The notes: generated from the sequence alone by a model not told the origin. A stretch of 56,740 nt of DNA from Candidatus Micrarchaeota archaeon (GCA_027046625.1 JALTXX010000006.1:1-56740); one strand, 5' to 3'. Shown: positions 1 to 17,371, counted from the stretch's first letter. A program made the numbers and translations.

Positions 1-92
1 ATCACATACCACCCCTTCCTCCACACTCCAATCAAACCCATCGGGGTATATATAACTTTCCTTTGGGTATTTGGTATTTAGGGCTTCGATGA
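1..92. repeat. Copy A of a 92-nt perfect direct repeat (partner 5474..5565); may extend beyond the window edge
   Basis: Base-by-base comparison: atcacatacc...gggcttcgatga is identical in both places. The copies diverge at position 93 (a) versus 5566 (g). Confidence 0.95.
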
Positions 93-102
93 ATAAACCA
101 AA
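1..102 (-). pseudogene. Orphan cassette 3 (partial): start-less copy of the junction region of the giant protein. The frame opens after TAG at 103-105 and runs out of the window.
   Basis: The minus-strand frame reads FGLFIEALNTKYPKESYIYPDGFDWSVEEGVVCD..., matching giant-protein residues just upstream of CDNRLNV. There is no ATG/GTG/TTG between the upstream stop and the homology. Nt 1-92 are identical to 5474-5565. Confidence 0.6.
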
Positions 103-234
103 CTAGGTTTAGAAGAATACAAGAAAGAAAGTGTCAATAGGGAGCCACGCCTTCATATGTGTAGGAATCGTCCGGGTTTATGTCTGGCATATTAAAATAT
201 TACCTTTTCATCTATTTAAACCTTGTCTATGTAA

Positions 235-1518
235 CTAGCCTTTTACTGTCCTCACTCTCGCCTCTCCAAGCTTTTTTAGTACATGCCAGTGTCTTTCATA
301 TGATATCTTCCCCTCTTTAGCATGTTGTAAGGTTTCTTTCAATAGGTTAGTAACCTCATCATGGTCTTTTAGATATTCTCTAACTCTTGGAGGACGTAAG
401 TAAAATGTATAGGGTAAGCTATGTGGTAAATACGCATGTTCAAACCTAAGCTCTTCCCCATCTTTTGTCTTAAAGTGGAAGTACCTCTTCTTCACAGCCT
501 CGTACAATGACTTTGCCCCTTTATGAATCTGATCCTTCAACTCAGGCCTTCTCTTCTCCAACATCTTCAGATACAGCGGATAAATCATTTCATTTATTAT
601 ATCATAGTGTGCACCAAGTTCCTCATCCAAATGTAGCATCCTCTCCTCTAGCTCTTTATGTCCCTTAGCATATGAAGCCCTACGAGGAAGAATTCTCGAC
701 GTTTCTGACAACATATCAGGGAAGAACACATCATCCTTAGCTTCTCCCTTCTCATGCTTCTCAATCCTCTCTAGAATTTTATCCACTAACTCTCCTAGCC
801 TATCCCCTACATACCAATGACTTTTTGCCATCTCACTAAGAATCTTCTTATACCTACTCTCCTCTACAGCCTTGAACACTTTATCCTCAAAAGGTTCAAT
901 GAACCTTATGAACTCATGATGTGAGTATACGTTGAGTTCTGGGTTTCTAATAATGTTCTCCAGGTCCTTCCACAACCCTATAACCAACGCCTTCTTTTGC
1001 TTTGTATCCATGTTCTCCAACACAGAAACATCAAAGATATCTGGCAACGCAGCCCTGTACTTCTCCCAATGCTTTTCCACGTGCTCAGCCACCTTCTTAG
1101 CAGCCTCTGCAATTTCCTCGCTAGTAAACTCTTCTTTCTTCAACGTCCTATAAGCATCCTCTGGCAACGGATACACCTTATGATAAATATCAGCCAACTC
1201 CTCCCATATCATTTTGTTAGCACCCCTCTCTCTATACTCCAAAAACCTATCAATTAACGGCTTAGCAGCCCTGCTGTGCATGGGGGATTTGTATATCTTT
1301 AGCACATGCTCATATACTTCCTTCGGAATGTTACCCTCCTTATCCTTTGTTAACTCCCCCAACAGATAGAGAATATAATAGGCCTTCAGTTTAGGAAACG
1401 GATAGTAAGTTTCATAGTATCTCCTTGGCTCTTTTTCCTCCTCCCTCTCCTTCCTTTCCTTCCTACCAAATAACCTCTTCAACAACTTCCACGTATCCTC
1501 AGGTGTGAAGATAACCAC
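235..1518 (-). CDS. Uncharacterised 427-aa soluble, highly charged protein; paralog of 2885..4252; cassette partner gene
   Basis: Full ORF with a GTG start 2 nt after the stop of the upstream ORF (1521). It shares blocks with the 455-aa protein: YY..YP.PK.KAYY, HVEK.W, IEPFEDKV.EAV..SRY. No TM segment and no motif I recognise. Confidence 0.8.
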   Translation of the reverse strand: MVIFTPEDTWKLLKRLFGRKERKEREEEKEPRRYYETYYPFPKLKAYYILYLLGELTKDKEGNIPKEVYEHVLKIYKSPMHSRAAKPLIDRFLEYRERGANKMIWEELADIYHKVYPLPEDAYRTLKKEEFTSEEIAEAAKKVAEHVEKHWEKYRAALPDIFDVSVLENMDTKQKKALVIGLWKDLENIIRNPELNVYSHHEFIRFIEPFEDKVFKAVEESRYKKILSEMAKSHWYVGDRLGELVDKILERIEKHEKGEAKDDVFFPDMLSETSRILPRRASYAKGHKELEERMLHLDEELGAHYDIINEMIYPLYLKMLEKRRPELKDQIHKGAKSLYEAVKKRYFHFKTKDGEELRFEHAYLPHSLPYTFYLRPPRVREYLKDHDEVTNLLKETLQHAKEGKISYERHWHVLKKLGEARVRTVKG

Positions 1519-1520
1519 CT

Positions 1521-1922
1521 TTAACCACCTCCACCTATGTTACCACTACTAACTACTCCCAACTCATATTTAACATTACCCTCCCCATCCTTCACCTTCA
1601 CAATATCTCCGATTCGCACCAACTCAATAACTTTACTTTTCTTTAGTTTTGAAACATCAGATTCACTTACTCCATAGGCAGCAGCAGCCCCAGCACCATA
1701 GGCAGCTGTTGTACATAGAAACTCCTTGAGTAAATTCTGTTTAGATGGCTTGGTAGCCTTAAACTTAGGAAGCCTTCTCTTAATATTCTTTATTTTGTTT
1801 AGTTTTTGTCTGTATTTGTATATAATTGGATCTATGTTTATTTTAGCTTGTTTGAACAAGCCTGATTGATTATTTCTAAATAAATTTTTTATGCTATCAA
1901 GAGACAAACCCGACATACTCAA
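1521..1922 (-). CDS. Orphan cassette 2, downstream part (133-aa ORF; track start is TTG, first ATG at 1916)
   Basis: Same frame as 2031-2714, with 35 sense codons between TAG and the TTG. Its C-terminal half aligns with the extreme C-terminus of the giant protein. Its stop lies 2 nt before the 427-aa gene start. Confidence 0.5.
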   Translation of the reverse strand: MSMSGLSLDSIKNLFRNNQSGLFKQAKINIDPIIYKYRQKLNKIKNIKRRLPKFKATKPSKQNLLKEFLCTTAAYGAGAAAAYGVSESDVSKLKKSKVIELVRIGDIVKVKDGEGNVKYELGVVSSGNIGGGG

Positions 1923-2027
1923 TTCAGCAGTGTCAACCTGTGACTTACCATCCTTTATAATCTCGCTAAGTATTTTTGCCAGCTTCTTCTTATTATTATT
2001 ATTTCCACCGATTAAAACATTCCCGTA

Positions 2028-2714
2028 CTACTTCACAATCTCTCCCATAGCTTCCAGCACTACCACACCTTCCTCGCCCTCGGGTACCTTCTTAACCAAA
2101 CTTATGGCCAACTTTTCCCAATCATCTCCAGCCACTTCCTTCAACTCATCCCACCCTCCGCCCATCACACCTCTCAAAAACTTACTCGCCTCATCCGCTA
2201 TCGCTTTTTTCTTCTTACCTATAAACAACACCCGATCTAACCCACCTATTTTATTTTTGTTAATAACATTCTTCAGTGTATTTAACCTACTTACCGCATC
2301 GCCCACCAAAAAGATCCTGGCAGATATTGATACCGCCATTGGTACCACCCCAAACGCTATAATCAGCTTCTTTTCTCCGATCTCTCCAACCCCGGCCATC
2401 TCCTTAAACTTATTCAGTATTCCTTCTCTGTCAGCAGCTATCAAAGCAGTAGGAGCAGCACACTGAACCGCTCCAGATATTGCCCCCATAATGCCTCCCA
2501 CACCTAGTGTGGTAATTGTTTTACATAACATATATGCACCCCAGCAGGCACCAGTAAATGCCCCAAGAGACTTGTTGCTCAACCTCTTCTCTAGCACACC
2601 AATCTCAGCCTTACCATAAGATTCCCCATCGAACTTCACTGTAATAAACTCGCTCTCCCCAACCTTCTCCTTCAACAACTTCTTCAGCCTAACATTGTCA
2701 ATGTTAATCCACAC
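2028..2714 (-). CDS. Orphan cassette 2, upstream part (228-aa ORF if translated from GTG 2714); Gly/Ala/Cys-rich hydrophobic helices
   Basis: ORF track. The GTG start lies inside the CDNRLNV junction codons. Contains the glycine-zipper-like segment GGIMGAISG. Ends at TAG 2028-2030, in frame with the next ORF. Confidence 0.55.
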   Translation of the reverse strand: MWINIDNVRLKKLLKEKVGESEFITVKFDGESYGKAEIGVLEKRLSNKSLGAFTGACWGAYMLCKTITTLGVGGIMGAISGAVQCAAPTALIAADREGILNKFKEMAGVGEIGEKKLIIAFGVVPMAVSISARIFLVGDAVSRLNTLKNVINKNKIGGLDRVLFIGKKKKAIADEASKFLRGVMGGGWDELKEVAGDDWEKLAISLVKKVPEGEEGVVVLEAMGEIVK

Positions 2715-2884
2715 ATTTAACCTATTATCACAAATAGCTTCATCCCACTCGATGAAGTTTTAAGAAAAAGGAACAACAAGAAATTAACCACCAGAGTAGG
2801 ATACCTCCCCATCGTCAAATACCTCTGGCATATTAATATAGGGTCATTCCTTGTATTTATACCTTATTATAGTTTTCTGTGTAT

Positions 2885-4252
2885 CTATGGTTTGAATTTA
2901 TACCTTACCTTCCTGTGTTCAGCAGATGCCAGCTCATCCATGAACATCTCATGGTGCATCTTCAATATCCTCCCTCCCTTGGCCTTGTTTATCATCCCCT
3001 CAAGCTTTCCAAGTGTCTCCTCAAAGTCCTTCAAATACTCCCTATACATAGCCTTGTACTTTTCTCTGTTTAGATACCCCTCAGACAATTGTTGCAACAG
3101 AGCCCCATGCTCATACCTTTCCAGCTTTCCATCCGTTGTTTTATAGTGCAACAGCTCCCTCTTTGCAATGTTCCACAGATGCTCCCTCTCCACCTCCTCT
3201 CCAAATTCCTCCACGAGCTTCTGTCTCACCTCAGGATACTTATGCTTCGCCTCTTCAAGCTTCTGAATATAGTAGGGATAGAACATCATGGAGAGTACAG
3301 AGTCCTTCCTCCTATAGTCTGCCCACTCCTTTTCATCCCCTGCAAGGTGCTCAATCTGTTCAGGCGGTACTATACCACGCGGATCCGGAGTGAGTATATT
3401 ACCATACGTATCCTCAAAAATCCTGAGTATTTCATCCTTATCCTCAAGGTTCCGCTTGGCTCTTCGCACCCACTCCTTTAGCCTTTCACTCCTCTCCCTG
3501 CTAACGGTATCCTCCAATGCCTTCATATACCTACTATCCTTCACCGCTTCCAACACCTTATCCTCAAAGGGTTCAATGAGCCTCATAAGTTCCTGGTACG
3601 TCTTACCATATTGGGAAAAGTAGTACCGTCTCCTGTGAAGGTATATATCATGCACCAAGCCTACCACAGCCCTCCTCTTCTGATCCTCACTCATCCTGTT
3701 AACATGCTCTTCATCGTAAATGAGATGCAAAATCTGCTCATAGTCCTTCCAGTTCTTCTCCACATGCTCTATAATCTTCTTAAGAGTCTCTTCCGCCTTT
3801 GGGTCCTCCTCGAAAAATACAGAGCTTCCTACTTGATACTTCTTCATCAACCAATAAAGCCTGTCCTTATTCTCTATGGGCAGCTCAGACAGCCTGTCCA
3901 TAAACTTGAGAATTACATAGTCCGGAGGAACTCCTCCCTCCCTGTCCCACGTCCTGAACAGTACCTCATGGAAGTTCTTGTTTGCATAGAGATACCTGTG
4001 GCTCTTCAGATTCTCAAGGTACTTTTTATACAAATCCACGTTCACCCCTTCCTTATCAGAGAATAAATGCCCCAATGTGTTAAGGAAGTAATAAGCTTTC
4101 ACCTTGGGATAGGGTGTGTAGTAGACAGTAGTATAATGCCTTTCCTCCTCATCCTCCCTCTTCTTCTCCTCCCTCTTTACCTTCTTTACCTCCTTCTTCT
4201 CCCCCTTCTTTCTCAATAGCCACGCAATTAGATCACCCAAGAGCTCGGCCAT
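2885..4252 (-). CDS. Uncharacterised 455-aa soluble, highly charged protein; paralog of 235..1518; partner gene of the giant protein
   Basis: The ATG lies 6 nt after the giant gene's TGA (4259-4261). K/E-rich N-terminus followed by the conserved blocks shared with the 427-aa protein. Confidence 0.85.
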   Translation of the reverse strand: MAELLGDLIAWLLRKKGEKKEVKKVKREEKKREDEEERHYTTVYYTPYPKVKAYYFLNTLGHLFSDKEGVNVDLYKKYLENLKSHRYLYANKNFHEVLFRTWDREGGVPPDYVILKFMDRLSELPIENKDRLYWLMKKYQVGSSVFFEEDPKAEETLKKIIEHVEKNWKDYEQILHLIYDEEHVNRMSEDQKRRAVVGLVHDIYLHRRRYYFSQYGKTYQELMRLIEPFEDKVLEAVKDSRYMKALEDTVSRERSERLKEWVRRAKRNLEDKDEILRIFEDTYGNILTPDPRGIVPPEQIEHLAGDEKEWADYRRKDSVLSMMFYPYYIQKLEEAKHKYPEVRQKLVEEFGEEVEREHLWNIAKRELLHYKTTDGKLERYEHGALLQQLSEGYLNREKYKAMYREYLKDFEETLGKLEGMINKAKGGRILKMHHEMFMDELASAEHRKVRYKFKP

Positions 4253-4258
4253 TCTATA

Positions 4259-7200
4259 TCACCTCCAACTCCAACCCATTCGTCCTTTGATATGCGTATC
4301 CCCCTTATACAGCTCCCTATATTCTATCTTTATTTTCTCCTCATCCGGCTCAACACCCACGTAAACCTCCCTCAATCCTAACACCTTCTCTATCTTCCAC
4401 ATACCATCGGATACCTTATCTATCTTTATGACTGTAAGAGAGGCCCCCTTCGTTGTTTTGGCAGCTGCATACGCAGAGGTGACACCTGCAAGGTAAGCAG
4501 CAGCCAAGCACCCAGCATCCTTTATTACGTTTTTAAGCTTACCGGTCAACCCTTCTGCAACCGTAGAAACCCTGGAAGCCTCCCTTTCCGGATTAGAAAT
4601 CTTTAGATCTCCGGTTATCAAATCACTAACGGTTCTTTGGGCGTTTTTACTAGAAATACTGCCTAATTGAATTCTGGGAATTCCTTCTAAAGCACTTCTG
4701 AGATTATCTCCACTATTATTACCTTTCAGTCCCCTAAGCAGTCCATCCAATTCATAGCTTTCATTTCCTACCCTAACAACATACGTTCCATTTTTTCCCT
4801 TCTCAGCCCTACTCAGCAGCAGCTTCAAATATGCCAGCGGCTCAAATCCATTATCTATATCTTTTGCAGCCTTCACAATATCAACAGGGTTAATCCCGTT
4901 CTCCAAGAGGATTTCATACCCCTTCTTACCGAAGAATCCTCTAGCAAACCTGTCATACACACTATCCATGTCCCTGTAGAATATCTTTGCAAACCTGCCA
5001 TCTTCGTTGAAGTTCTTCAACCCTTCAAAGGCCCTCTTATAATCCACTACCCACCTATGTATCGCAGCATCCGCCGCCACAATGCTGCCCCCTACAAGCA
5101 CCGCAGGCAACCACCCCTCCTTCACCGCTTCTGTAACCTCACCCCTCTCCACAGATATAATGGCATTCTTTAACTGATCTTTGTAATTATAGACCGCTGC
5201 TCCACTAGGTGCACACATAAATACTCCCTGAGCGACAGAGCTCAGGAAACCACCCTTCCACACCTTCCAAGCACCACATGCAGCATAGACAGCCGTACAT
5301 GTAGCTACAAAGGTAGCAACGGTGGTTTTGTTCACCAAAGCCTCTGCAAACTTCACATCTGCCGTTCCGTAGGAACTTCCATCATAGAGAATGACAATGT
5401 TCTGAGGATCGATCTTACTTAGCTCACCTCTCAGTCCAGCATCACCAATATCAGCACTAACGTTTAACCTATTATCACATACCACCCCTTCCTCCACACT
5501 CCAATCAAACCCATCGGGGTATATATAACTTTCCTTTGGGTATTTGGTATTTAGGGCTTCGATGAGTTTTGGAATGAGCTCGTTGATGGATTTGATCTCT
5601 CCCAGTGCAGTGGCAAGGTCTGTCTCATTGATGTTGGCCTCCATAAACTTTAGTTTCACCTCAGAGTACACTAATCTCCCGCCGATGATGTAGTACACAA
5701 GCAGAGGTAACTCCCATTTCTTATCAAACGTCAAGCTCTTATCTCCAGCCGAAATCTCCACTTGTGTACCATTCTTCCAAACAATGGTTAGGGTGGTACC
5801 GTTACCAATGGTAATACCATCGGTGGCTTTTGTCCCCTCTTTTGCAAGGATGCACATACCAGAGGAGCAGATAGAGGAACCTTCAATGCTCCAGCTCCAC
5901 TGCTTCAGGTTGCCGTTGCAGCTTTTCATGTAGGGGATGAGCAGCACAAACTCTTTCTTCTTTATTTCTCCAGTCGGTGGATAAACGTAGTAGGTAATAC
6001 CACCGTTGCTATTCTCTTTCTCGTAAACTACTTGGGTTGGATCCGCTATGAAGGTTTTGAAGGTTTCCTCTAGCTTGGAAGGTTCCACACCTTCGTTGAA
6101 GGTTACCGTGAAGGAGTTAGATGTCTCTTCTACCTTGAAGTGGGCCTGGTTGTTAAGGGAGCCTAACTTGAAGGTGATGGAGCTTTCGCTGGAGATGGTG
6201 GCGCCGGAGTTGTTTATTATGTTACTGAGGATATCGGGGACGGCGCCGCTTGACTCTACTTTTACCTCTACCTTATCGGGTAGATTGCCGGGATTCTTGG
6301 GGTTTATGAACCAGTAGAGGGGGAGCTTTACGTCGGGGAGCGAAGCGTTGGGGATAGTTTTGGCACATAGATAGGTTAGGCCTCCCTCCTTTTTGAGGGT
6401 GAAGGTGACAGAACCAGGTCCTATATCCATGGCAGCGACAGGGTTGGATTCACACTTGAGGAGGATGGGGGGATCTATGAAGTGATTGGCTGTGAGGGTC
6501 ATTTTTCTTGTGTAGAGAGTGAAGCTTACCTCCTTTTCTTTCATTGTTTCTGCAGTCTCTGTAATTCTTTGAACAACGTCAGAGAGGAAGAGGTATCTGC
6601 TGGATGGTACAGTTAATTGTTCCCCATCGATGGTGGTTACCTCTGTGTTGGGTTTTTCTTCAATGGTGATGGACAGATAACCCTCTGCGTTAGAGAGGTA
6701 AAGGATACCATCTTCTACCGTTTTAGGTATGGTTATGGATAGGAAGATTTTGTTATCTGAACCTGAAGAGGGTGGTAGTCTGATCGTTTTTGCTTCATTT
6801 GGTCTGAAAGTTACGCTGTTGACGGTAATGGGATAGTTGCAGCTGTTTGTGATAAATATTTGTGTGGTTCCGGGAGGAACAGATGATTGATAAATTATAC
6901 AATCTGTGGAGAAGGGTATAAGATGAATGGGTAGCTCCACTCTTCCCCTGTCGGTACCTATCACAATACGATACTCAGAGGAGGAAGCGGGAACCTCCTT
7001 TACCTCTATTGAAAGGGTTGCCGAGGTGGAACTTTTCTTGTTTATGGTGATGGGGAGAGCATCAAAGGATAGGGAGGCAGAAATGCGGTCGCTCAATACA
7101 TTTTTTATTCCATTTATAGTAGCACTTACCTCGTTAGAGGCAATGGTAACTTTATTGCTAAACTCTCCCGTGGAAGATGCTATCACATAAACCCTGTTGA

Positions 7201-10200
7201 AGGTCTGCTCATTATACTTGAATGTGAGGAGATATTGGGATGGGATGACGGTAACTTCCTTATCAATATTTACCTTCTTTCTGAGGGAGCCAATGGAGTA
7301 GGAAAGGAGAAGGGTGGCATTCCAGGTTGTAGGTTTGTCAACCTCCTCTCCTTTATAGGAGAGGGAGATGGAAATGCTTCCATCGGAGGGATCATCGTCT
7401 GAAAGACTTGCGGTGAAGAGGGAGGAGGGAGAGATGGAAACTCCCCCTATATCAAGGAAGGAAAGAACAGATCCGTCGTTTATGGTAATTGGTATCTCTG
7501 TCTCCCTATCTTCCACAAGGATGATAGGCTCCTCAACATCGAAGGACAGTCCTATACTCCCTTTCACTACGGTGAATGTTGTGGTAAAGTATCTCATCTC
7601 TCCTCCAAACTCATAACCCCATACTAGTGTTGCCTCACAGGAAGCTTCCCTACTTTCTGAAGTAAGGGTTACATCCATTTCCTCCTCTGAGGAAGAAGGT
7701 ATGGAGGTTGGAATGGATAGGGTTAGCTCCCCATTTTCACACACCTTCTCCATGCTTCCGTTCTCTGGATAGGCTAAGAATATGGTGTAGGGTGAGGTAT
7801 TCCTTATGGGAATGGATACCGAGTTAAATCTGCTTCCTTCGGGGAAGGGAATGGTAATAGTTTCTGGGATGTCAAGGAGAGGTTGCCCTGGAGGAATGTA
7901 GACAGTAACTACCTCAGGAACAACACTGCATACATAATCCAAACCTTCTTTGCAGATTACCTGCAGATCTCCTTTCATACCTGGAAGGGTTAGGATGCAC
8001 CTTCCGTTCTCAAAGGTGGCTGTTATACCTCCTCCGGCAGAACAGCTATCCCTCCCTACAATGACGTCAAAGGGCTGCATATCTCCAAGGGCAGGCCCGC
8101 TCAATGTGAGAGCTATGCTATCTATGCCCTTTGGAAGTGATACCTCAATGGGAAGTTCTTCTTTAAAAAGGAAGGAGAACCCCTCATTTACACGGACAAA
8201 TACCGTTCTATCACCAAGAACGGTAATATTTCTCGTGTTGGTGTAAAGTACTGCTCCATCCTTAGAAAATATTTGTAGTTTAGCCGCGTAAGAACCCTCC
8301 TTAACATTTTTTACCCTTAGCGTTACCTCCTTTACATCAAAGGGTTTTAGCGTGATACTTATGTCCTTCTTCTTGTCTCCGAAGCTGAGGGTAAGCTTTG
8401 CAGAGGAAGATTCTAGAGAGCATCTTATTACATAGGCTCTAACCTCTAGATTATCCCCCTCCAGTGCGGAGGCAACGTCTGTATACGTCTTTCCATCCCT
8501 TTCTACGTCAAAGGATAGGAGGCTGCCATACCCGTTGGTACATCTTGCCTCTCCTAGAGCTGGAATGACGGCAGTATCCGTATAGGAGGCGCCCTTATCT
8601 GTTTCAAGGGTGTAGCTTATTCTTGCATATCCATCCACATCGTACAGAGGTACAACAACCTCTACCTCTCCTGACAGATCATTCACCTTAACAGTTTTTA
8701 CCTCTGAGGAGCCATCGGGCTTGAATGCTTCTACTATGAGGGTGGCGCCGGTACTGTCAGGAGTGAGAGCATAGTCAAAGAGTAGGGTATACTGCTTTCC
8801 ACTCTCTATGGATGCATATAGCTCCCCCTTCTTTTTTACTCCCTTCAGGATGGCCTTCGGCGCCTCGTTTATGGGAGTAAGGTAAATATCTACCCGGGAG
8901 TATGTTGGTACTGCTACATCCTTCTTGGATGGCACATATCCTTCTGCGGACACATTTATGGTGTATTCACCCTTTGGAAGCATTACAATACCACAGCCAT
9001 TAATGTTTGTCCTCTTTGTAAGTTCTTTTCCTCCTGCTGTAACCCCTTCAATGGAAAGAGAGACATTATTTACATTTTCTACAGTATCCTCCCTTCTCCA
9101 AAGGATGCACACCTCAAGGGAGTACTCTCTCTCAGTTGCCCTTAGGGATCTTTCCATGATGGTTGTTTCGAAGGTGTCTGTTTTCCATACAAGGGTTGCC
9201 TTTACCTCTCCGTGAAGTTCTACCTTCTTTTCCTTTACCTGGGGTTCATTCTTCAACGAGAGGGAAATTGTTTCGTTGTTCAGGGTTAGCTCAAGAGAGC
9301 CGTGGCCAAACCCTCCCAGGGAAACCACACTCTCTGATGAGATGGTATCCTCCTCACCTTCCCACTTTACATAGTACCACAACTCCGTTCCATCGTAGTT
9401 CTGGAAGGGAATAGAGGTTGCGTAGAAGGTACCCTCCCCTGTAAACTCCTCTCTGGTATTATCCTTGTAGTGTAGGGTTGCAACGATCTTTATATCTACA
9501 TCTTTTATATCCCCTGTGAAGCTGAATCCCCTAAATGTAAAGTCTACATATTCCTTATCTGCGGCGTCCTTTGAAATTTCTTGGGAGAATGTCTTGAAGA
9601 GAGGGGATGATACACCAGCCTGTACCCTAACCTCTACGCTCTTTGCTTCGTTGTTTGTATAAACTCTTACATGTAGTTTACCTCCATTTATTAGTACCCT
9701 TCCGCTGGGCACCCCATTCTTGGTGAAATACCATTCTATGGTGCCGGTGGGCTTTTTCTCCCTGTACACAAGGGTTATGGCCTCGGTAGCAACAATCCTT
9801 TCATCTTTTAGAACCTCTACTCTGAGGGGTTGGGTTCTGTCCACCGTAAAATCGATACTTCCATAGGCAAATCCTTCCACAGGTATTTCCTTTTTATCCT
9901 TTATGATAAATCTGAGGGTGGCATTCCCCACTACTATGTATGTTATCGTAGCCTTTCCGTTTATGGCATCCACCTCTTCTGTGGGAGTTATAAGGTATAG
10001 GATACCTTCTGCTTCCTTTAGAGGGGCAGATATAAGCGTTACTTCCTGTTCAAAGCTCCCCTCTTCCTCACCGTTCTTCAATACCTTTACACGAAGTGTA
10101 TATTTTCCATCCTCTAAGGAGGGGGTTGGTATCTTAAGGGAGAGGGACGGAGGAGAGGGAGAGACCCTCTTGTTAAGAAGGGTTTTGCCGCCCATCTCTA

Positions 10201-11929
10201 CCAGAATGGTTCTCCCCTCATCGGAGGGGAAGTTTATAAGAATGGAGAGGTAGCCTCCTTTTAGAAGAACGGGCACCTCTTTTCCTTTGAAGAGTATTCC
10301 TATAGAGGCTGACAATTTATCTGGATAGGAATCTCTCATCACATCCTTAGGTATGACAATATCGCTTCCTGGCTCGATGCTTCCCGTGGAAAGCACCTTG
10401 TTGCCTACCTTGTATTCGTAGGTGTATTCATCGCCCAGTTCAAGTTTAAAGGTACATGTTTCTTTGCACTCCTTCCTATCGTAAAGCTCTCCATTCTTCT
10501 TTACCTCTACTATTCCGGGCAGAGGAACGCTAACCTTTGTATTTACAACAAGAGTGCCAAAATCCATGGTAACCTCCATGTCATCTGTTAGTTCTACTTT
10601 CCTCTCAACAGATCTGCCATATGCATACGCTGTAAGGGTATAGTTACCCTTTGGAAGGTAGGTTACCACTTTTCCGTTGTTCGTGGATAGTTTCCTATCC
10701 ACCTCTTTTATATGGACGGAAAATACCTTGACGGGTCCCTTTCTATGTTTTGCCTGTATGGTTAGCTTGTAAAGAGGTATAGAAGAGCTATTGGTCAGAG
10801 GAATGAGAGCGTAACCCTCCTCATCGGTGGTAACCTCAAGGTTTCCAACCTTCACAGTTTTGTTCTTTACGGGCTTTCCGTTATCTACAATTTGTTTTTT
10901 AAGATAAAACTGGCCTGTTCCAATATCTGCAACAATAATACTATCCTCGTTTGCAAAGAAAAAGTCAGAGACCCTATCTTTTACCTTTATCTGGTAATCT
11001 CCGGCACACACCTTAAAACTTACAGATCCATCTTTCCCTGTAACCTTTCGGTATGTTCCTCCCTGGGGGGAGAAGAGCTCAACTTGAACATCCTCTTGAG
11101 GCACCCCATCCTTTGCTACAAACACCACCACATTAACCCTTCTGCACTCTTCGTTACCTGCGAGGAACTTTAGATCCTCAAGGGGTTCTAGCTTTACCAT
11201 TCGTGTGTCGGAATTGGTGGTTAGGGTGACATTGAACTTCTTCTCCTTATAACCGACAGCTTTTACCGTAATAGTGTAGAGAACATTTTGCTTCAACTTC
11301 AGGGAGAGCTTGCCATCGTTTGCTTCATATGTAGAAACGGTATCTCCTTCCACTAGCACAAATGCGTGTAGAGCCTTCCCATCTGTATCCGTGATAAACA
11401 GCTCAAGGGTACCCCACCCTTCCTCTGGGGCGGAAGATTGTTTTAGAGTAATGGAAATACTTTCATCGCCTCCCACAAAGAAGGTTCTGCCAGTTCTTTC
11501 AAAGGCCGGATGATCCACTTCAATCCTTATCTCCCCTTCAGGAATGGGTTTAAGCTCTGCATATCCGAAATCATCCGTGTATGCTTCTGCTACAACTTCT
11601 CCGTTGAGAAACGCCTTTACAGTGGCACCTTTTACAGGATTCCCCTCCTCATCCTCCACATAGATAGATAGTATGTACTGGTTTTGAGGGATGGTAAGGA
11701 ATATGAACCCTCCTATTAGAAGTAGAACCACCCCAAGGAATAGAGGGAAGGGAGGGATACCCCTCTCATCTAAAAAATCATGCAATCTGTATACTGGCAA
11801 CCCCCTCTCATCTAAAAAGTCCAGCATTCTGTAGAAGGCATCTTCTAGAGAGGTGTAGAGGTTTCTCAGGATGGTGGCTACCATGTTGTAGTATAAGAGG
11901 CTTGGGAAGGTTTTAAACGTTGGGGTCAT
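4259..11929 (-). CDS. Giant (2556 aa) membrane-anchored cell-surface protein: N-terminal TM anchor, many Ig-like / CarboxypepD_reg-like beta-sandwich repeats, and a roughly 406-aa variable CT domain after CDNRLNV (Cys2151)
   Basis: Uninterrupted 7.67-kb ORF. TM segment FPLFLGVVLLLIGGFIFLTI near residue 60-80. Repeated segments such as VEDEEGNPVKGATVKAFLNGEVVAEAYTDDFGYAEL and TNINGCGIVMLPKGEYTINVSAEGY. The CT domain has 4 small-residue-rich hydrophobic helices. An alternative start at M16 (11884) is possible. Confidence 0.9.
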   Translation of the reverse strand: MTPTFKTFPSLLYYNMVATILRNLYTSLEDAFYRMLDFLDERGLPVYRLHDFLDERGIPPFPLFLGVVLLLIGGFIFLTIPQNQYILSIYVEDEEGNPVKGATVKAFLNGEVVAEAYTDDFGYAELKPIPEGEIRIEVDHPAFERTGRTFFVGGDESISITLKQSSAPEEGWGTLELFITDTDGKALHAFVLVEGDTVSTYEANDGKLSLKLKQNVLYTITVKAVGYKEKKFNVTLTTNSDTRMVKLEPLEDLKFLAGNEECRRVNVVVFVAKDGVPQEDVQVELFSPQGGTYRKVTGKDGSVSFKVCAGDYQIKVKDRVSDFFFANEDSIIVADIGTGQFYLKKQIVDNGKPVKNKTVKVGNLEVTTDEEGYALIPLTNSSSIPLYKLTIQAKHRKGPVKVFSVHIKEVDRKLSTNNGKVVTYLPKGNYTLTAYAYGRSVERKVELTDDMEVTMDFGTLVVNTKVSVPLPGIVEVKKNGELYDRKECKETCTFKLELGDEYTYEYKVGNKVLSTGSIEPGSDIVIPKDVMRDSYPDKLSASIGILFKGKEVPVLLKGGYLSILINFPSDEGRTILVEMGGKTLLNKRVSPSPPSLSLKIPTPSLEDGKYTLRVKVLKNGEEEGSFEQEVTLISAPLKEAEGILYLITPTEEVDAINGKATITYIVVGNATLRFIIKDKKEIPVEGFAYGSIDFTVDRTQPLRVEVLKDERIVATEAITLVYREKKPTGTIEWYFTKNGVPSGRVLINGGKLHVRVYTNNEAKSVEVRVQAGVSSPLFKTFSQEISKDAADKEYVDFTFRGFSFTGDIKDVDIKIVATLHYKDNTREEFTGEGTFYATSIPFQNYDGTELWYYVKWEGEEDTISSESVVSLGGFGHGSLELTLNNETISLSLKNEPQVKEKKVELHGEVKATLVWKTDTFETTIMERSLRATEREYSLEVCILWRREDTVENVNNVSLSIEGVTAGGKELTKRTNINGCGIVMLPKGEYTINVSAEGYVPSKKDVAVPTYSRVDIYLTPINEAPKAILKGVKKKGELYASIESGKQYTLLFDYALTPDSTGATLIVEAFKPDGSSEVKTVKVNDLSGEVEVVVPLYDVDGYARISYTLETDKGASYTDTAVIPALGEARCTNGYGSLLSFDVERDGKTYTDVASALEGDNLEVRAYVIRCSLESSSAKLTLSFGDKKKDISITLKPFDVKEVTLRVKNVKEGSYAAKLQIFSKDGAVLYTNTRNITVLGDRTVFVRVNEGFSFLFKEELPIEVSLPKGIDSIALTLSGPALGDMQPFDVIVGRDSCSAGGGITATFENGRCILTLPGMKGDLQVICKEGLDYVCSVVPEVVTVYIPPGQPLLDIPETITIPFPEGSRFNSVSIPIRNTSPYTIFLAYPENGSMEKVCENGELTLSIPTSIPSSSEEEMDVTLTSESREASCEATLVWGYEFGGEMRYFTTTFTVVKGSIGLSFDVEEPIILVEDRETEIPITINDGSVLSFLDIGGVSISPSSLFTASLSDDDPSDGSISISLSYKGEEVDKPTTWNATLLLSYSIGSLRKKVNIDKEVTVIPSQYLLTFKYNEQTFNRVYVIASSTGEFSNKVTIASNEVSATINGIKNVLSDRISASLSFDALPITINKKSSTSATLSIEVKEVPASSSEYRIVIGTDRGRVELPIHLIPFSTDCIIYQSSVPPGTTQIFITNSCNYPITVNSVTFRPNEAKTIRLPPSSGSDNKIFLSITIPKTVEDGILYLSNAEGYLSITIEEKPNTEVTTIDGEQLTVPSSRYLFLSDVVQRITETAETMKEKEVSFTLYTRKMTLTANHFIDPPILLKCESNPVAAMDIGPGSVTFTLKKEGGLTYLCAKTIPNASLPDVKLPLYWFINPKNPGNLPDKVEVKVESSGAVPDILSNIINNSGATISSESSITFKLGSLNNQAHFKVEETSNSFTVTFNEGVEPSKLEETFKTFIADPTQVVYEKENSNGGITYYVYPPTGEIKKKEFVLLIPYMKSCNGNLKQWSWSIEGSSICSSGMCILAKEGTKATDGITIGNGTTLTIVWKNGTQVEISAGDKSLTFDKKWELPLLVYYIIGGRLVYSEVKLKFMEANINETDLATALGEIKSINELIPKLIEALNTKYPKESYIYPDGFDWSVEEGVVCDNRLNVSADIGDAGLRGELSKIDPQNIVILYDGSSYGTADVKFAEALVNKTTVATFVATCTAVYAACGAWKVWKGGFLSSVAQGVFMCAPSGAAVYNYKDQLKNAIISVERGEVTEAVKEGWLPAVLVGGSIVAADAAIHRWVVDYKRAFEGLKNFNEDGRFAKIFYRDMDSVYDRFARGFFGKKGYEILLENGINPVDIVKAAKDIDNGFEPLAYLKLLLSRAEKGKNGTYVVRVGNESYELDGLLRGLKGNNSGDNLRSALEGIPRIQLGSISSKNAQRTVSDLITGDLKISNPEREASRVSTVAEGLTGKLKNVIKDAGCLAAAYLAGVTSAYAAAKTTKGASLTVIKIDKVSDGMWKIEKVLGLREVYVGVEPDEEKIKIEYRELYKGDTHIKGRMGWSWR
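5474..5565. repeat. Copy B of the 92-nt perfect direct repeat, inside the giant gene just upstream of its CT domain
   Basis: Identical to window positions 1-92. Encodes IEALNTKYPKESYIYPDGFDWSVEEGVVCD. Confidence 0.95.
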
Positions 11930-11957: not shown

Positions 11958-13229
11958 ATGGAACCGGGGGATGAGGTAGAATTCTACTGGAGAGGAGCAC
12001 GGAAGAAAGGGGTTTTCATAAAGGAAGAAGGGAAATACCTTATCTTTAAGCTTGAAAATGGTTACAATGTAGGTTTTCCTAAGGACGAGATAGAGAACAT
12101 AAAAATTATCTCTAAAAGGCATGTAGGAAAGCCAAAATTTCATTACAAACCGGAATTTAGGGAGGATCTGCCCCTTGTGGGGCTGGCAGCTACGGGGGGA
12201 ACCATCTCAGCAAGGGTGGACTACATAACAGGAGCGGTCACATCGGAATTTACGGTAGAGGATCTGGTAAACACCTTTCCAGAGATGAGGGAGGTGGCGC
12301 GCCCGAAGCTAAAGCAGATCTCCAATATATTTTCTGAAAACATGGTACCATCGCTGTGGAAAGATATTGCAAGAGAGATTTATGATCTTCTAAAGGAAAC
12401 AGAGGGAGTAGTGGTCACACACGGAACGGATACCATGCACTACACATCTTCATACCTTTCTTTTGCTATAGAAACGGGCAAACCAGTTGTACTAACCGGA
12501 GCCCAGCGCTCCTCAGACAGACCCTCCTCAGATGCAGCTTACAACCTCATCTCCTCCCTTTATGTGGCAGGACACTCCCCTCTAGGAGGAGTATTCGTCT
12601 GTATGCATGCATCTTCCTCAGATGGGAGGAATGCGGTCCATCTTGGGACAAGGGTGAGGAAGATGCATACCAGCAGAAGGGATACCTTCCAGAGCATAGG
12701 AAGGGATCCTGTCGCCTTTGTGGATCTGGAGATGAGGAAAGGAAAGATAGATCGTATCGATCTCGAGGTGCTGGACCCCTCCTTTAGTAGGGGAGATAAA
12801 CTTAACTTGAGAAATTACGTGAATGAAAATGTGGGACTCGTAAAATATTATCCTGGCATGAAAAGGGAGATATTCGAACGCTTCCTCTTCTCCCACGAGG
12901 GAGTTATCATAGAAGGAACAGGATTTGGACACATAAGGGAGGAGCTCATACCCATAATAGAGCAGGCAACACACTCCAACGTATTTGTTGGTATTACGTC
13001 CCAAACCATATGGGGCAGAACACATCCCCATGTATACTCAACAGCTGTAAGGATGGCAGAGGCAGGCGCTGTGTTCCTTGAGGATATGTTGCCCGAAACA
13101 GCCTTTGCAAAGCTTGTTTGGGTGATGGGGTTTGAAAAGGACCTAGAAAAGATAAAGGAGCATATGCTAACAAACTATGCGGGAGAGATTACAGAGAGGA
13201 GTGGGATAACATGGATCTCATCCTTATAA
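11958..13229 (+). CDS. gatD: Glutamyl-tRNA(Gln) amidotransferase subunit D (GatD)
   Basis: Asparaginase-like motifs ATGGTISARVDY and HGTDTM, with a typical GatD N-terminal domain. Overlaps gatE by 19 nt. Confidence 0.9.
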   Translation: MEPGDEVEFYWRGARKKGVFIKEEGKYLIFKLENGYNVGFPKDEIENIKIISKRHVGKPKFHYKPEFREDLPLVGLAATGGTISARVDYITGAVTSEFTVEDLVNTFPEMREVARPKLKQISNIFSENMVPSLWKDIAREIYDLLKETEGVVVTHGTDTMHYTSSYLSFAIETGKPVVLTGAQRSSDRPSSDAAYNLISSLYVAGHSPLGGVFVCMHASSSDGRNAVHLGTRVRKMHTSRRDTFQSIGRDPVAFVDLEMRKGKIDRIDLEVLDPSFSRGDKLNLRNYVNENVGLVKYYPGMKREIFERFLFSHEGVIIEGTGFGHIREELIPIIEQATHSNVFVGITSQTIWGRTHPHVYSTAVRMAEAGAVFLEDMLPETAFAKLVWVMGFEKDLEKIKEHMLTNYAGEITERSGITWISSL

Positions 13230-15505
13230 CAGGTCCCCCAGGTGCAGGAAAGGATACGGTAGCGGATATAATATCAAAGAAGGGGTGGAAACACCTTTCC
13301 ATGTCCCACTTTCTGAAGGAGGAGTATAGAGAGAGGTATGGAAACTACCCTACAGAGGAAGAACTAATCTCCTTTGCAAAGGAAGTTAGAAAGGAGGGAA
13401 GAGATGCGGTTGCCAAACTTCTGAGGCCCCGTCTCTCAGAGAAGACGGTAATTTCTGGCATCCGATCCAAAGAGGAGATAGATTTCTTCAGAAGGGAAGG
13501 GAGAGTTGTGGTGATAAACGTTACAGCTCCTGAGGAAGAAAGGGAGAAGAGACGCCCAGGAGCTCTAAGGAGAGAGGAGAAAGAGAAGGAGTTAGGATTA
13601 TATGAAGCAATGGAAGAGGCAGATGTTACAATAGAAAATGACGGAACTCTTGAAGAACTAAAGGAGAGGGTGGAGTTCATCGTGGATAACATTGAGTGGT
13701 ACTTTCTGGGTTTAAAGGCCGGTTTGGAGATACATCAACAGCTGAATACAAAAAAGCTGTTTTGTTCGTGTCCCTCTGAACTGAGGGAAGAATTCTCCCT
13801 GGAAATAGGGAGGTTTTTGAGGCCAGTAGCCTCGGAACTGGGGGAATTTGACAGAGCTGCTCTTACAGAGTTCAACAAGGGACTGAAGTATGTTTACAGG
13901 GTAAACAAAGATGTGTGCTGTCTTGTGGAGATGGATGAGGAACCTCCCCATCCCCCCACCAGAGAAGCACTGGAAGCTTCTATTATGATGGCCCTGTATA
14001 CAAACTCTAACATTGTTCCTCTCGTTCAGGTAATGAGAAAAATCGTAATAGACGGATCCAATACTACGGGGTTCCAGCGAACCATGCTTATTGCAATGGA
14101 TGGTAAACTAAAAACGCCTCATACAAGTGTAAAAATACCAACTATTTGCTTGGAGGAGGATGCTGCCAGACCTGTGGAAAGAGATGAAGAAAAGGTAGTA
14201 TATATGCTAGATAGATTAGGAATACCCCTTATAGAGATATCCACATCCCCAGATCTGCACTCCCCTCTTGAGGTGAAAGAGGCAGCAGAGCGTATAGGGA
14301 TGCTCTTGCGCTCTACAGGGCTGGTAAAAAGAGGCCTTGGTACCATAAGGCAGGATATAAATATTTCTATAAGAGGCGGCGCCCGCGTGGAGATAAAGGG
14401 TGTCCAGAATCTTGATATGATAGACAAGTACGTTGAGTTTGAAGCGGTGAGGCAGAAAAGGCTCATAGAGCTTATTCCTCTCATAAAAAAGGTTAAGGTT
14501 CATCCTCCCAAGGATATAACGCATGTTTTCTCTTCTACAAAGAGCAAACTGCTGAAAAAAGCATTAGAAAAGGGAGAACGAGTGTTTGGGATAAGACTGG
14601 AAAAGGGAAGGGGTATTATGGGGTATGAGCTGGGACCAAACAGAAGATTTGGAAGCGAAGTAGCAGACTATGTGAGAGTACATGCAGGACTCGGAGGAAT
14701 ATTACATAGTGATGAGCTGCCCGCCTATGGGATAACGGAGGATGAGGTAAGAAAAGTAAAGGAAACACTTTCGTGTAAAGAGGAAGACGGCTTTATACTG
14801 TTTACTTCTAAGGATCCATCTCCTTACAACATTATAAAGGAACGTATAGAGCTGGCAAAGGAAAGGGTGCCCGAGGAGACGAGGAGCCCACGCCCCGATG
14901 GTACTACCTCCTATGCCAGACCTCTTCCCGGAGCTGCAAGGATGTATCCAGAAACGGATCTTCCCCCTATGGAGACAGAACTCCTAGTAGAAGAGGTAAG
15001 GAAAAAGTTACCTCCCCTCCCAGAGGAGAGAAAGGAGAAACTACTTTCTCTAGGTTTGAAAGTAGAAATGGTAGAAAAGCTCATCAAATCCAGGTACCTG
15101 TTTCTTTTTGAGTATCTTGTGGAAAGAGGTGTTGATCCCAGATTTGCCTCAAATATTATACTAAACAAGTTTCCCTACTGGAGAAGGGAGGGAATAGATA
15201 TAGAAAGCATAGGAGAGGAACGATGGGAAGAGCTACTGAAGGGATACGAGGCTATATATCCAAAGAATGCTATGGATGATATAGTAAAGCTTCTCTTGGA
15301 AGGATACTCATTGAAGGAGGCTGTGGACAAGCTTGGTGTGAGGATGCTATCGGAGGAGGAAACAGAAAAGCTAGTAAAGGAGGTAATAAGGGAACTTGGG
15401 CCTGAAGCAAACGAGGGTAAAATTATAGGGGAGGTAATAAAGAGGAGCAGGGGAAGGGCCAGTGGTAGGGTAGTATCCTCCATCCTTAAAAGGTTGAGAG
15501 CATGA
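13211..15505 (+). CDS. gatE: Glutamyl-tRNA(Gln) amidotransferase subunit E (GatE) with an N-terminal P-loop nucleotide-kinase-like domain of about 157 aa, fused in frame
   Basis: The GatE core starts at FLGLKAGLEIHQQLNTKKLFCSCPSE. The N-terminal part has Walker A GPPGAGKD and a UPF0200/CoaE-like layout (ISGIRSKEEIDFFRREG...). No stop separates the two parts. An in-frame GTG at 13682 could be an internal start. Confidence 0.85.
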   Translation: MDLILITGPPGAGKDTVADIISKKGWKHLSMSHFLKEEYRERYGNYPTEEELISFAKEVRKEGRDAVAKLLRPRLSEKTVISGIRSKEEIDFFRREGRVVVINVTAPEEEREKRRPGALRREEKEKELGLYEAMEEADVTIENDGTLEELKERVEFIVDNIEWYFLGLKAGLEIHQQLNTKKLFCSCPSELREEFSLEIGRFLRPVASELGEFDRAALTEFNKGLKYVYRVNKDVCCLVEMDEEPPHPPTREALEASIMMALYTNSNIVPLVQVMRKIVIDGSNTTGFQRTMLIAMDGKLKTPHTSVKIPTICLEEDAARPVERDEEKVVYMLDRLGIPLIEISTSPDLHSPLEVKEAAERIGMLLRSTGLVKRGLGTIRQDINISIRGGARVEIKGVQNLDMIDKYVEFEAVRQKRLIELIPLIKKVKVHPPKDITHVFSSTKSKLLKKALEKGERVFGIRLEKGRGIMGYELGPNRRFGSEVADYVRVHAGLGGILHSDELPAYGITEDEVRKVKETLSCKEEDGFILFTSKDPSPYNIIKERIELAKERVPEETRSPRPDGTTSYARPLPGAARMYPETDLPPMETELLVEEVRKKLPPLPEERKEKLLSLGLKVEMVEKLIKSRYLFLFEYLVERGVDPRFASNIILNKFPYWRREGIDIESIGEERWEELLKGYEAIYPKNAMDDIVKLLLEGYSLKEAVDKLGVRMLSEEETEKLVKEVIRELGPEANEGKIIGEVIKRSRGRASGRVVSSILKRLRA

Positions 15506-16176
15506 TTGTTGCCCTCTCTTCCTTTGTACACGGTAGTGGGAGGAGTACCATAGCAAAAGAGATTGCAAGAAGGTTAGATGCGATTCATATATCTTCAGGA
15601 GATATATTTAGAGAGATTGCGAGGGAGTATGGGTTTGATGATGTAAAGATGTTTGGGGAATATCTAATGAATAACAAGAGGCTAATGATACAAGTGGAAA
15701 CAGCCATAGATGTGGAGATGCAGGAACGTATCAGAACGCTCTACAGAAGTGGTAAAACAATAGTATTGGATTCAAACCTACATTCCCACCCTGCTCTTCT
15801 TCAAGGGATGGAACATGTAAGTTTCTATGTGTATGCATCACCCTCCATTATAAGAGAGCGGCTTTTGAGGTTTCCTAGAAGGGATGAAAAGTACGGGGAA
15901 GATCCTCTCAGATATGAGCTGGAGAGAACAAGAAAGGATATAAACAGGTATAGACTGTTATCACTTCTTACTCCAAACCCTCTGAGCTATCTGTACAGCT
16001 ACGGCTCTCAGGTATTATCCAAGCTTTACCATCTTTATAAACTTCACATGAGAGGTGCTCCCCTTCTCTGGCTAAGACAGGCCGCCACTTCCGAGGGGGC
16101 ACACTTTCTGGACAACTCTGGACCGTTAGAGAGGAGTGTCAACACTGCTATGGAGCTCATTCTTCAAGGAAGGTGA
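15502..16176 (+). CDS. Cytidylate-kinase-like P-loop protein with a degenerate Walker A motif
   Basis: HGSGRSTIAKEIARRLDAIHISSGDIFREIA resembles archaeal Cmk (GSGK[ST]T...SAG.iFRe.A), but Lys is replaced by Arg. ATGA overlap with the gatE stop. Confidence 0.55.
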   Translation: MIVALSSFVHGSGRSTIAKEIARRLDAIHISSGDIFREIAREYGFDDVKMFGEYLMNNKRLMIQVETAIDVEMQERIRTLYRSGKTIVLDSNLHSHPALLQGMEHVSFYVYASPSIIRERLLRFPRRDEKYGEDPLRYELERTRKDINRYRLLSLLTPNPLSYLYSYGSQVLSKLYHLYKLHMRGAPLLWLRQAATSEGAHFLDNSGPLERSVNTAMELILQGR

Positions 16177-17371
16177 TGGGCCTGGTAAAGTGGAAATTTT
16201 CGTATTTGCTGTACTTATTTAAATGATCCTTTATAAGGTACCCCAGAATGTCTCTGATTCTGAGTTTGGTGGTAACTAACTTTTTCTGCATCTTTGAGTG
16301 CCTCTTGCGCAGTATATTATCCTCTGCATATTTTCTTATGGCTTCTGCTACATCCCTTACAAGCTGCTCATAGAGAGGTCTGGTGGTACGTATCTTCATC
16401 GGACCTTTATACTCTTTTCTAACCTTTGCATGGGAGAAGAGTTCCTTCTTAAACTCTTTCAACACCTCCGGATCGGAAAGGATATCTCTGGCATGCATTA
16501 GGGCTTCTAGGTAGAACCCCATACCCTTTATTCCAGTATCTTTCGAAGCTTCCACTATTCTGTCAAGTTCTGCTGCCACGTCAGAGAAGAAGGCATCTAT
16601 ATGGTAATCTTCCTTTTTGTGGCTGGGATCCGCCTCCTTTATCTGTTCCAGGGATGCTCTAAACCCTTGGGCAACTGCAGACTCTTCGCGTGTGGTTAGC
16701 ATATTGTTCTTCTTTAGCATCTTGTAAAGTGTGGCCAGCTCCTTTCCGTAGAGGTGCTCCTTCCCCTCCTTCACAGCAAGGTATATTTCATCGATAGGGA
16801 CGTTCTTTCCATTTACATTCACACTATCTATTTTCAACCTTCTTGCAGCGGTAATCATTTCAAGAAGTTTATCTCTGGGAGCCAATACTATTTTTGGTAT
16901 CTTCTTGGGCTTTTCAGCTGATCTTAATAACTCTGGATGCCTCTTATCTATTTCTTTATAAACTTTCTCTGCGGCTTCGTTGACAAGTTTCTGTTTGAGC
17001 TCCTTTAGCTTTTCCTTCTTCTGCTCTTTCTTCTTTATGTAGTTCTCCACCCTATCAAGCAGCTCGAATATCTTCTTCTGTTGTATTCTATTCAAAATCA
17101 GCTGTTGTATGCCCTCTTCTGTAGAATACGGACTCATAGGAGATTTGTTAACCTCTTTTAAAACATCTACCAGGTTTATACCTCTCCTTTTTAATGATCT
17201 AAGCCTGCTATAAAGTTTTGAAAGCTCTTCTTCAGAATACTTTGTCAATCCCCATGGACGAGATGTTATGCCATGCTCCCTCAAAGCAGATCTAACGTTG
17301 TTTCTAAGCAGCTCATGGTTGTGGGTAAGCTGTCTCCTCACCCTTCTAAAACCTTCTATTACCCTCTTCAT
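16157..17371 (-). CDS. Hypothetical K/E-rich 404-aa protein
   Basis: Long ORF with no motif I recognise. Confidence 0.6.
   Translation of the reverse strand: MKRVIEGFRRVRRQLTHNHELLRNNVRSALREHGITSRPWGLTKYSEEELSKLYSRLRSLKRRGINLVDVLKEVNKSPMSPYSTEEGIQQLILNRIQQKKIFELLDRVENYIKKKEQKKEKLKELKQKLVNEAAEKVYKEIDKRHPELLRSAEKPKKIPKIVLAPRDKLLEMITAARRLKIDSVNVNGKNVPIDEIYLAVKEGKEHLYGKELATLYKMLKKNNMLTTREESAVAQGFRASLEQIKEADPSHKKEDYHIDAFFSDVAAELDRIVEASKDTGIKGMGFYLEALMHARDILSDPEVLKEFKKELFSHAKVRKEYKGPMKIRTTRPLYEQLVRDVAEAIRKYAEDNILRKRHSKMQKKLVTTKLRIRDILGYLIKDHLNKYSKYENFHFTRPITFLEE

Follow-up and report, generated by a model that had tools for sequence, protein, structure and literature searches.

What does a 92-nt coding segment do at the very end of an archaeal contig when the same segment lies, base for base, inside a giant surface-protein gene ~5.5 kb away? 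The stretch of DNA analyzed here (the window) is an entire contig of 56,740 nt, and its position 1 is the contig end. The initial annotation had claimed that positions 1-92 are identical to positions 5474-5565. We found that they are (92/92 matches), and a match of this kind cannot have arisen by chance. The two copies of this block, which we call R, are in direct orientation, and R is the sole long exact repeat in the first 13 kb of the window. The features of this region are as follows:

1-92, minus strand: R, copy 2; 92/92 identity to 5474-5565; candidate 5' homology arm of the third C-terminal cassette unit; encodes (F)IEALNTKYPKESYIYPDGFDWSVEEGVVCD; cut at the contig end.
93-234, minus strand: spacer 2, between P2 and the third unit; TATA-like sequence TTTAAATA (213-220); small ORF MPDINPDDSYTYEGVAPY with its stop codon (134-190); TAG at 103-105.
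235-1518, minus strand: partner gene P2, 427 aa; paralog of P1 (BLASTP, 29% identity, E = 2e-32).
1521-1922, minus strand: cassette 2, distal half, 133 aa; 31% identity (E = 4e-5) to the tail of CT1 (query residues ~356-409).
2028-2759, minus strand: cassette 2, proximal half; pre-junction remnant, CDNRLNV (2712-2732), and a hydrophobic, Cys-containing module; 23% identity to CT1 (E = 1e-11).
2760-2884, minus strand: spacer 1; TATA-like sequence TATAAATA (2854-2861); small ORF MPEVFDDGEVSYSGG with its stop codon (2784-2831).
2885-4252, minus strand: partner gene P1, 455 aa; starts 6 nt past the stop codon of the giant gene.
4259-5479, minus strand: CT1, the 406-aa C-terminal module of the giant gene; starts at CDNRLNV (5459-5479).
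5474-5565, minus strand: R, copy 1; pre-junction coding region of the giant gene, aa 2120/2121-2150.
4259-11929, minus strand: giant surface-protein gene, 2,556 aa (Pfam and hydropathy); divergent from gatD.

The window is part of an archaeal chromosome. It contains gatD and gatE, archaeal AlaRS and LeuRS, PolB, and four tRNAs. Among 185,579 species genomes, the closest GatD sequences are from Candidatus Iainarchaeum (DPANN) MAGs (69-74% identity). Judging from these sequences, the host is an uncultured DPANN archaeon, with the Iainarchaeota as its closest kin. GatE (13211-15505) has an N-terminal extension of ~160 aa of the P-loop kinase type (AAA_17/AAA_18; PRK08356-like), and the gene after it (15502-16176) contains a similar P-loop kinase-type domain.

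The giant protein has a large, surface-anchored N-terminal and central region with repeats. A cytoplasmic LDxLDERGxP repeat at the N terminus is followed by one TM helix (aa 62-80), and the Pfam domains found in the protein are CarboxypepD_reg, Y_Y_Y, and Ig-like. The tandem repeat ahead of the single TM helix, of the type LDFLDERG(L/I)PVY, is at positions 11760-11833. A syntenic giant homolog adjoins gatD in an Iainarchaeum MAG contig (JAADDC010000061.1) and is 29% identical over aa 13-1494; that contig ends short of the homolog's C terminus. The same homolog suggests that the true start of the giant gene is Met codon 16 (position 11884). An N-terminal module of ~90 aa is the only part common to other archaeal giants of ~2,600 aa (P0004-P0007) and the Iainarchaeum homolog (L003). 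Using a profile of the giant's N terminus and this homolog, we found distant archaeal giants in the protein database, all of them without CDNRLNV; the same profile found nothing in JGI metagenomes.

R occupies a defined place in the giant gene. It covers the last 30 codons preceding the CDNRLNV junction, which is at aa 2151 of the protein. The window contains the motif just twice, at 5459-5479 and 2712-2732. As the annotation had stated, the minus strands of both copies of R encode a common peptide, IEALNTKYPKESYIYPDGFDWSVEEGVVCD, and similarity ends immediately upstream of the block: position 93 is A, position 5566 is G, and nothing alike is found past there. The frame of the edge copy does open after the TAG at 103-105, four codons (FGLF) ahead of R, and it lacks an ATG, although R itself contains two GTG codons in that frame. 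At its other end, the edge copy is cut by the contig end after the 'CD' of the junction motif.

The description of R as a sharp-edged block inside otherwise diverged paralogs holds in part. The edge between positions 92 and 93 is sharp, and the opposite edge falls at the contig end. Because R abuts the contig end, the edge between 92 and 93 is the only one that can be observed, and 92 nt is the minimum length of the block as observed. If the assembler that produced the window halted at a graph branch, then R is 92 nt long exactly, its two continuations already differing at the base that follows. Divergence of the paralogs is seen for cassette 2 and the main gene; any C-terminal module of cassette 3 would lie outside the contig.

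Cassettes 2 and 3 have the organization of orphans. Both are without a gene body and an ATG, both have kept pre-junction homology to the main gene, and the frames of both are closed just upstream, that of cassette 2 by a stop codon at 2760-2762. The pre-junction piece kept in cassette 2 consists of nine decayed codons (NFIEWDEAI, 2733-2759) plus a 17-nt core, and that in cassette 3 consists of 30 codons identical to the main gene. Homology to the main gene sets in at one common point in both orphans, TCATCGA(A)G, which encodes (L/F)IE. Such a common 5' boundary is expected if the array arose by duplication of a unit made of stub, junction, CT, partner, and spacer. We found that CT1 and the CT of cassette 2 are homologous, with Cys positions in common, and are therefore not from unrelated families. 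Two ORFs (2028-2732 and 1521-1922), with ~105 nt between them, make up the split CT of cassette 2, which is without a ~95-aa insert that CT1 has.

We found that the junction is conserved to an unusual degree between the main gene and cassette 2. The annotation had estimated that the two share about 17 identical nucleotides. The number is exactly 17 (TGTGATAATAGGTTAAA, at 2716-2732 and 5463-5479), and this core was found nowhere else in the window, even with three mismatches allowed. The two copies of the core are identical at synonymous sites, including a rare Leu codon, TTA (7% usage); the probability of this, given the amino acids, is ~0.013. In the 66 nt after the core, just 30 positions (30/66) are identical. 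The codon identity of the core, compared with the 30/66 that follows, suggests that the junction is conserved at the level of DNA. The conserved core is possibly a recombination site or a translation-initiation region.

Each CT is followed, within 2-6 nt, by a gene that has diverged along with it (P1 and P2). The products of these genes are 427-455 aa long and belong to no known family. The coupling of each CT to its partner, and the parallel divergence of the two, suggest that module and partner are cognate pairs. Such pairs could be toxin and immunity proteins, or the lock and key of an identity system.

The spacers that follow the partner genes are also homologous (183-224 and 2824-2865; 76% identity over 42 nt). 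In each spacer, a TATA-like box is located exactly 22 nt upstream of an ATG that opens an acidic micro-ORF of 15-18 aa. Such spacing is compatible with an archaeal promoter that gives a leaderless transcript, and the orphan units may be transcribed from these spacer elements. A scan for bacterial sigma-70 promoters and terminators was uninformative, the host being archaeal.

The identity of the modules was sought in several ways. The last 1,200 aa of the giant protein, searched with full HMMER against 1.84e9 representatives, matched only itself, and a word-indexed search with the last 514 aa found no homolog. A profile of the two partner paralogs, searched against 5.8e9 clusters, recovered P1 and P2 and no third partner paralog. 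The CTs and partners had no relevant sequence match in Pfam, NCBIfam, PADLOC, or the PDB. AlphaFold models of CT1 and the partner were unusable (pLDDT ~45), and Foldseek found nothing in the PDB with E <= 0.001. The ~95-aa insert of CT1 was the only part modeled with moderate confidence (pLDDT 70-89; helices followed by three short strands). From their sequence, the hydrophobic Ala/Gly/Cys-rich segments, of which CT1 has three to four of moderate hydrophobicity, fit either a membrane-active toxin or a membrane anchor.

We compared the window with an independent assembly of the same population (ENA ERZ23495399, BioSample SAMN12239309, k=55). One contig of that assembly, scaffold_472 (L084; 63.6 kb), begins at window position 5511 and matches the window at 99.97% identity. 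A second, scaffold_40272 (L001), corresponds to window positions 2707-38. The first arrives in R from the gene body and the second from the spacer, and each halts exactly 55 nt in. Two contigs that converge on one 55-mer indicate a repeat node with two in-edges in the k=55 de Bruijn graph. Both junctions, gene body to R and spacer to R, are therefore supported by reads, and the second copy of R is not a private artifact of the window contig. The spacer-R junction recurs in scaffold_40272, together with 55 nt of R.

Other searches extended the comparison to further contigs. An exact 26-mer of R had no match in genome contigs, JGI metagenome contigs, or viral contigs, and neither the giant protein nor P1 had an entry in exact-protein look-ups. 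Of the contigs recovered through P2, GatD, and the P1 variant described below (L001, L002, L083, L084, and L085), none crosses R. One of these, a k=31 Logan contig (L002, from SRR10312489), corresponds to window positions 214-1764. One of its ends falls within the TATA-like box of spacer 2 (214) and the other within the distal cassette 2 ORF (1764); neither is at a repeat of the window, and they may reflect further micro-variation or low coverage.

We estimate that there is about an even chance that R is the recombination arm of a third silent cassette, used for C-terminal switching in a manner similar to that of Rhs and CDI systems. On this model, the locus would be a tandem array of units, each with the order pre-junction stub, CDNRLNV, C-terminal module, partner gene, and spacer. 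Unit 1 would be expressed, in frame with the gene body, and units 2 and 3, which have no body and no ATG, would be silent. R would sit at the conserved 5' boundary of the third unit. Since the copies of R are direct repeats, homologous recombination between them, presumably of the RadA type, would excise 5,473 bp (CT1, P1, cassette 2, and P2) and fuse the gene body to whatever continues from the edge copy. If a distinct third module follows R, as the model predicts, the body would be joined to it in frame. Non-reciprocal gene conversion across R could keep the arm identical.

Several findings are in favor of switching. There is no integrase or transposase between the repeats, units 1 and 2 are paralogous throughout, and the start of homology is common to both orphans. 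The exact direct repeat with its abrupt edge, the convergence of two independent contigs on it, the codon identity of the 17-nt core, the raised variation at the locus (see below), and the Rhs precedent also speak for it. The initial annotation had read R as a maintained recombination handle. The architecture of the orphan array, the genuineness of the second copy, and the direct orientation of the repeats are in line with that reading; the homology of CT1 and CT2, which are not unrelated modules, is not.

Other findings are against switching. The contig stops at R, and no recombinant junction was observed. The absence of a third partner paralog from 5.8e9 clusters, and of any homolog of the last 1,200 aa from 1.84e9 representatives, also counts against it. 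A diverged module that keeps the motif should have in common with the main gene no fewer than 11 further nt (AATAGGTTAAA), which is the case for cassette 2. However, if a graph branch is where the contig ends, the two sequences part at the very next base rather than sharing AATAGGTTAAA. In addition, of the two orphans it is the one more distant from the main gene, cassette 3, that has the better-preserved arm, a pattern that simple sequential displacement does not predict. A better arm in the more distal cassette would need recent conversion.

The locus is a hot spot of variation in the population. A scaffold from the same sample (ENA scaffold_59731, L083) covers window positions 4531-2653, spanning the end of CT1, P1, the spacer, and the start of cassette 2. 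Compared with the window, it has 28 substitutions and 7 gaps (2% difference; 97.9% identity). The flanking chromosome has 5 differing sites in 17.7 kb (0.03%). The differences are patchy (window 3392-3350, 2887-2867, and 2802-2780) and hit aa 288-301 of P1, the stop codon of P1 together with the beginning of the spacer, and the distal half of the micro-ORF. P1 of this variant has seven amino-acid changes, five of them in aa 288-301, and of 11 coding changes, 9 are non-synonymous. Loss of the P1 stop codon gives a protein of 459 aa compared with 455, and the tail of the micro-ORF differs. We found no donor for the variant patches within the window. The variant scaffold overlaps scaffold_40272 by exactly 55 nt and therefore continues into that same cassette 2-P2 sequence.

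The few positions at which the window departs from the ENA and NCBI (WANZ01000044.1) contigs are clustered elsewhere too, at 9348 and 9354 (within 7 nt) and at 16916, 16930, and 16946 (within 31 nt). These clustered SNPs suggest short recombination tracts between co-occurring strains.

The existence of a 98%-identical variant means that the continuation past R could be a near-identical duplicate unit. Our results might thus also indicate that the edge copy opens a second unit 1, made by recent tandem duplication of the 5.47-kb segment from R through CT1, P1, cassette 2, P2, and the spacer, or present as a strain-level structural variant, and that the assembler stopped on re-entering sequence already used. 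We regard this as a serious possibility, if somewhat unlikely. It accounts for a variant in the same sample that leads, through a 55-nt overlap, into the same cassette 2-P2 sequence, and for the finding, in protein searches of very large scale, that neither a third partner nor a third CT family member turned up. A recent duplicate would by default be perfectly identical, and activation of Rhs orphans itself goes through duplication of the locus (PMC3967940). However, the variant is explained equally well as the allele of a co-occurring strain, the flanks also showing small clustered SNPs between assemblies, and its patches have no donor inside the window. Furthermore, were the contig end a graph branch, the duplicate would need to differ at the first base of the conserved Asn codon.

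A switch of a kind specific to DPANN archaea, with no toxin or immunity protein, would use the same array differently. The membrane-embedded CT of a giant host-contact or self-identity protein would be exchanged, along with a cognate cytoplasmic partner of 430-455 aa, by recombination at the nucleotide-conserved junction, and each silent unit would have its own promoter and leaderless micro-ORF. We consider this version unlikely.

The edge copy could instead be a dead stub, the pre-junction leftover of an old displacement or partial duplication, followed by unrelated or decayed DNA, with no functional third module and no role in switching. Decay of this type is seen in cassette 2, with its nine-codon pre-junction piece, its CT in two ORFs, and no ATG, and no third partner paralog was found in 5.8e9 clusters. 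However, an identity of 92/92 is hard to square with an old, unselected remnant when cassette 2 is only 23-31% identical in amino acids, and the edge copy has an open frame preceded by a conserved spacer with a promoter-like element. A dead stub seems to us quite improbable.

The position of R exactly at the contig end, and a length of 92 nt that is near an odd k of 91 or 93, could also point to an assembly artifact, in which the terminal 92 nt are a chimeric join or a k-mer overlap from the internal copy. We think this very unlikely, because the spacer-R junction is present in the other assembly, where the contig from the gene body breaks at the same 55-mer and so needs two in-edges supported by reads, and because a random chimera would not reproduce a junction that is at the boundary of cassette 2 as well. 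Least likely of all, and barely credible, is that the copies of R are the attL and attR of a mobile element integrated in the 3' part of the giant gene. An integrase-mediated insertion is typically flanked by perfect direct repeats that are tens to ~100 nt long, as the 5.5-kb insert here is, but the insert consists of paralogs of the flanking cassette system, and positions 93-5473 contain no integrase, transposase, or Pfam mobile-element gene on either strand.

Switching of C-terminal cassettes through R would have close parallels in bacteria, where a mechanism based on a repeat plus an orphan is well established. As in Rhs and CDI (CdiA) systems, the locus has a large exported protein, a short junction motif, a variable CT, and a gene directly downstream, and its start-less downstream cassettes keep a pre-junction piece as a direct repeat. 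Recombination across the repeat is likewise predicted to fuse the body to an orphan and delete the intervening genes. Recombination between rhs-main and an rhs-CT-orphan of Salmonella has been shown experimentally (Koskiniemi et al. 2014, PMC3967940); the common region there is 522 bp at 95% identity, and recombination follows duplication of the locus (PMC3967940). In contrast, the arm found here is 92 nt at 100% identity. The junction is CDNRLNV and not PxxxxDPxGL or VENN, and the host is a DPANN archaeon whose giant protein has no Rhs/YD or FHA/two-partner-secretion domains. Unlike Rhs and CDI modules, CT1 and CT2 are homologous and hydrophobic, with no recognizable toxin fold, and a toxin role for them is putative. 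The partners, at 427-455 aa, are far larger than typical immunity proteins, and an immunity role for them is putative as well.

Polymorphic toxin systems have reportedly been predicted in archaea too (by Makarova and colleagues, in mBio in 2019). Like those systems, this locus is defined computationally and has a large secreted protein, variable C termini, and downstream cassettes. However, the CT and partner found here match no Pfam or NCBIfam toxin or immunity family, in a comparison that covered those two collections.

Antigenic variation from silent cassettes is known from Neisseria pilE/pilS, Borrelia vlsE, and Campylobacter fetus sap. Those systems also combine one expressed gene with partial copies that lack a promoter or start and contain short conserved recombination blocks. 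They vary an exposed epitope, mostly by gene conversion, and have no partner for each cassette. In contrast, each cassette here has a partner, and the direct repeats favor deletion.

The VARTIG proteins (arCOG07710) are limited to Thermococcales; their variable part is an Ig domain in which two Cys are conserved, and they terminate in a D[ND]NxxxG[GD] motif (Makarova et al. 2021, PMC8416519). Their variation has been attributed to recombination as a proposal, and no recombination within the locus was detected (PMC8416519). Like them, the giant protein is a large surface protein of archaea with Ig domains; its C-terminal region is hypervariable, and shorter genes downstream align with that region. 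Unlike VARTIG, the variable part here is a hydrophobic, helix-rich module after CDNRLNV, and there is no DNNxxxGG motif. We rejected membership in VARTIG: the GatD relatives are from Iainarchaeum, and the C termini end in ...GRMGWSWR and ...SGNIGGGG.

DPANN archaea spend their lives attached to other cells, and it is believed that this contact depends on their giant surface proteins. To our knowledge, almost nothing is known about how these proteins vary. The mechanism suggested here is textbook for bacteria; what is new, in a polymorphic C-terminal cassette array, is the junction motif, the orphan protein families, and the DPANN lineage. The protein families are without detectable relatives in ~2 billion representative proteins. 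If the switching model is correct, a DPANN lineage uses the logic of bacterial Rhs and CDI systems, with an expressed gene, silent cassettes that have their own partners, and a short exact arm. The deletion predicted by the model is 5,473 bp long and would fuse gene body and third module, and the CT and its partner would be a defined pair of proteins for toxicity and neutralization or for recognition of identity.
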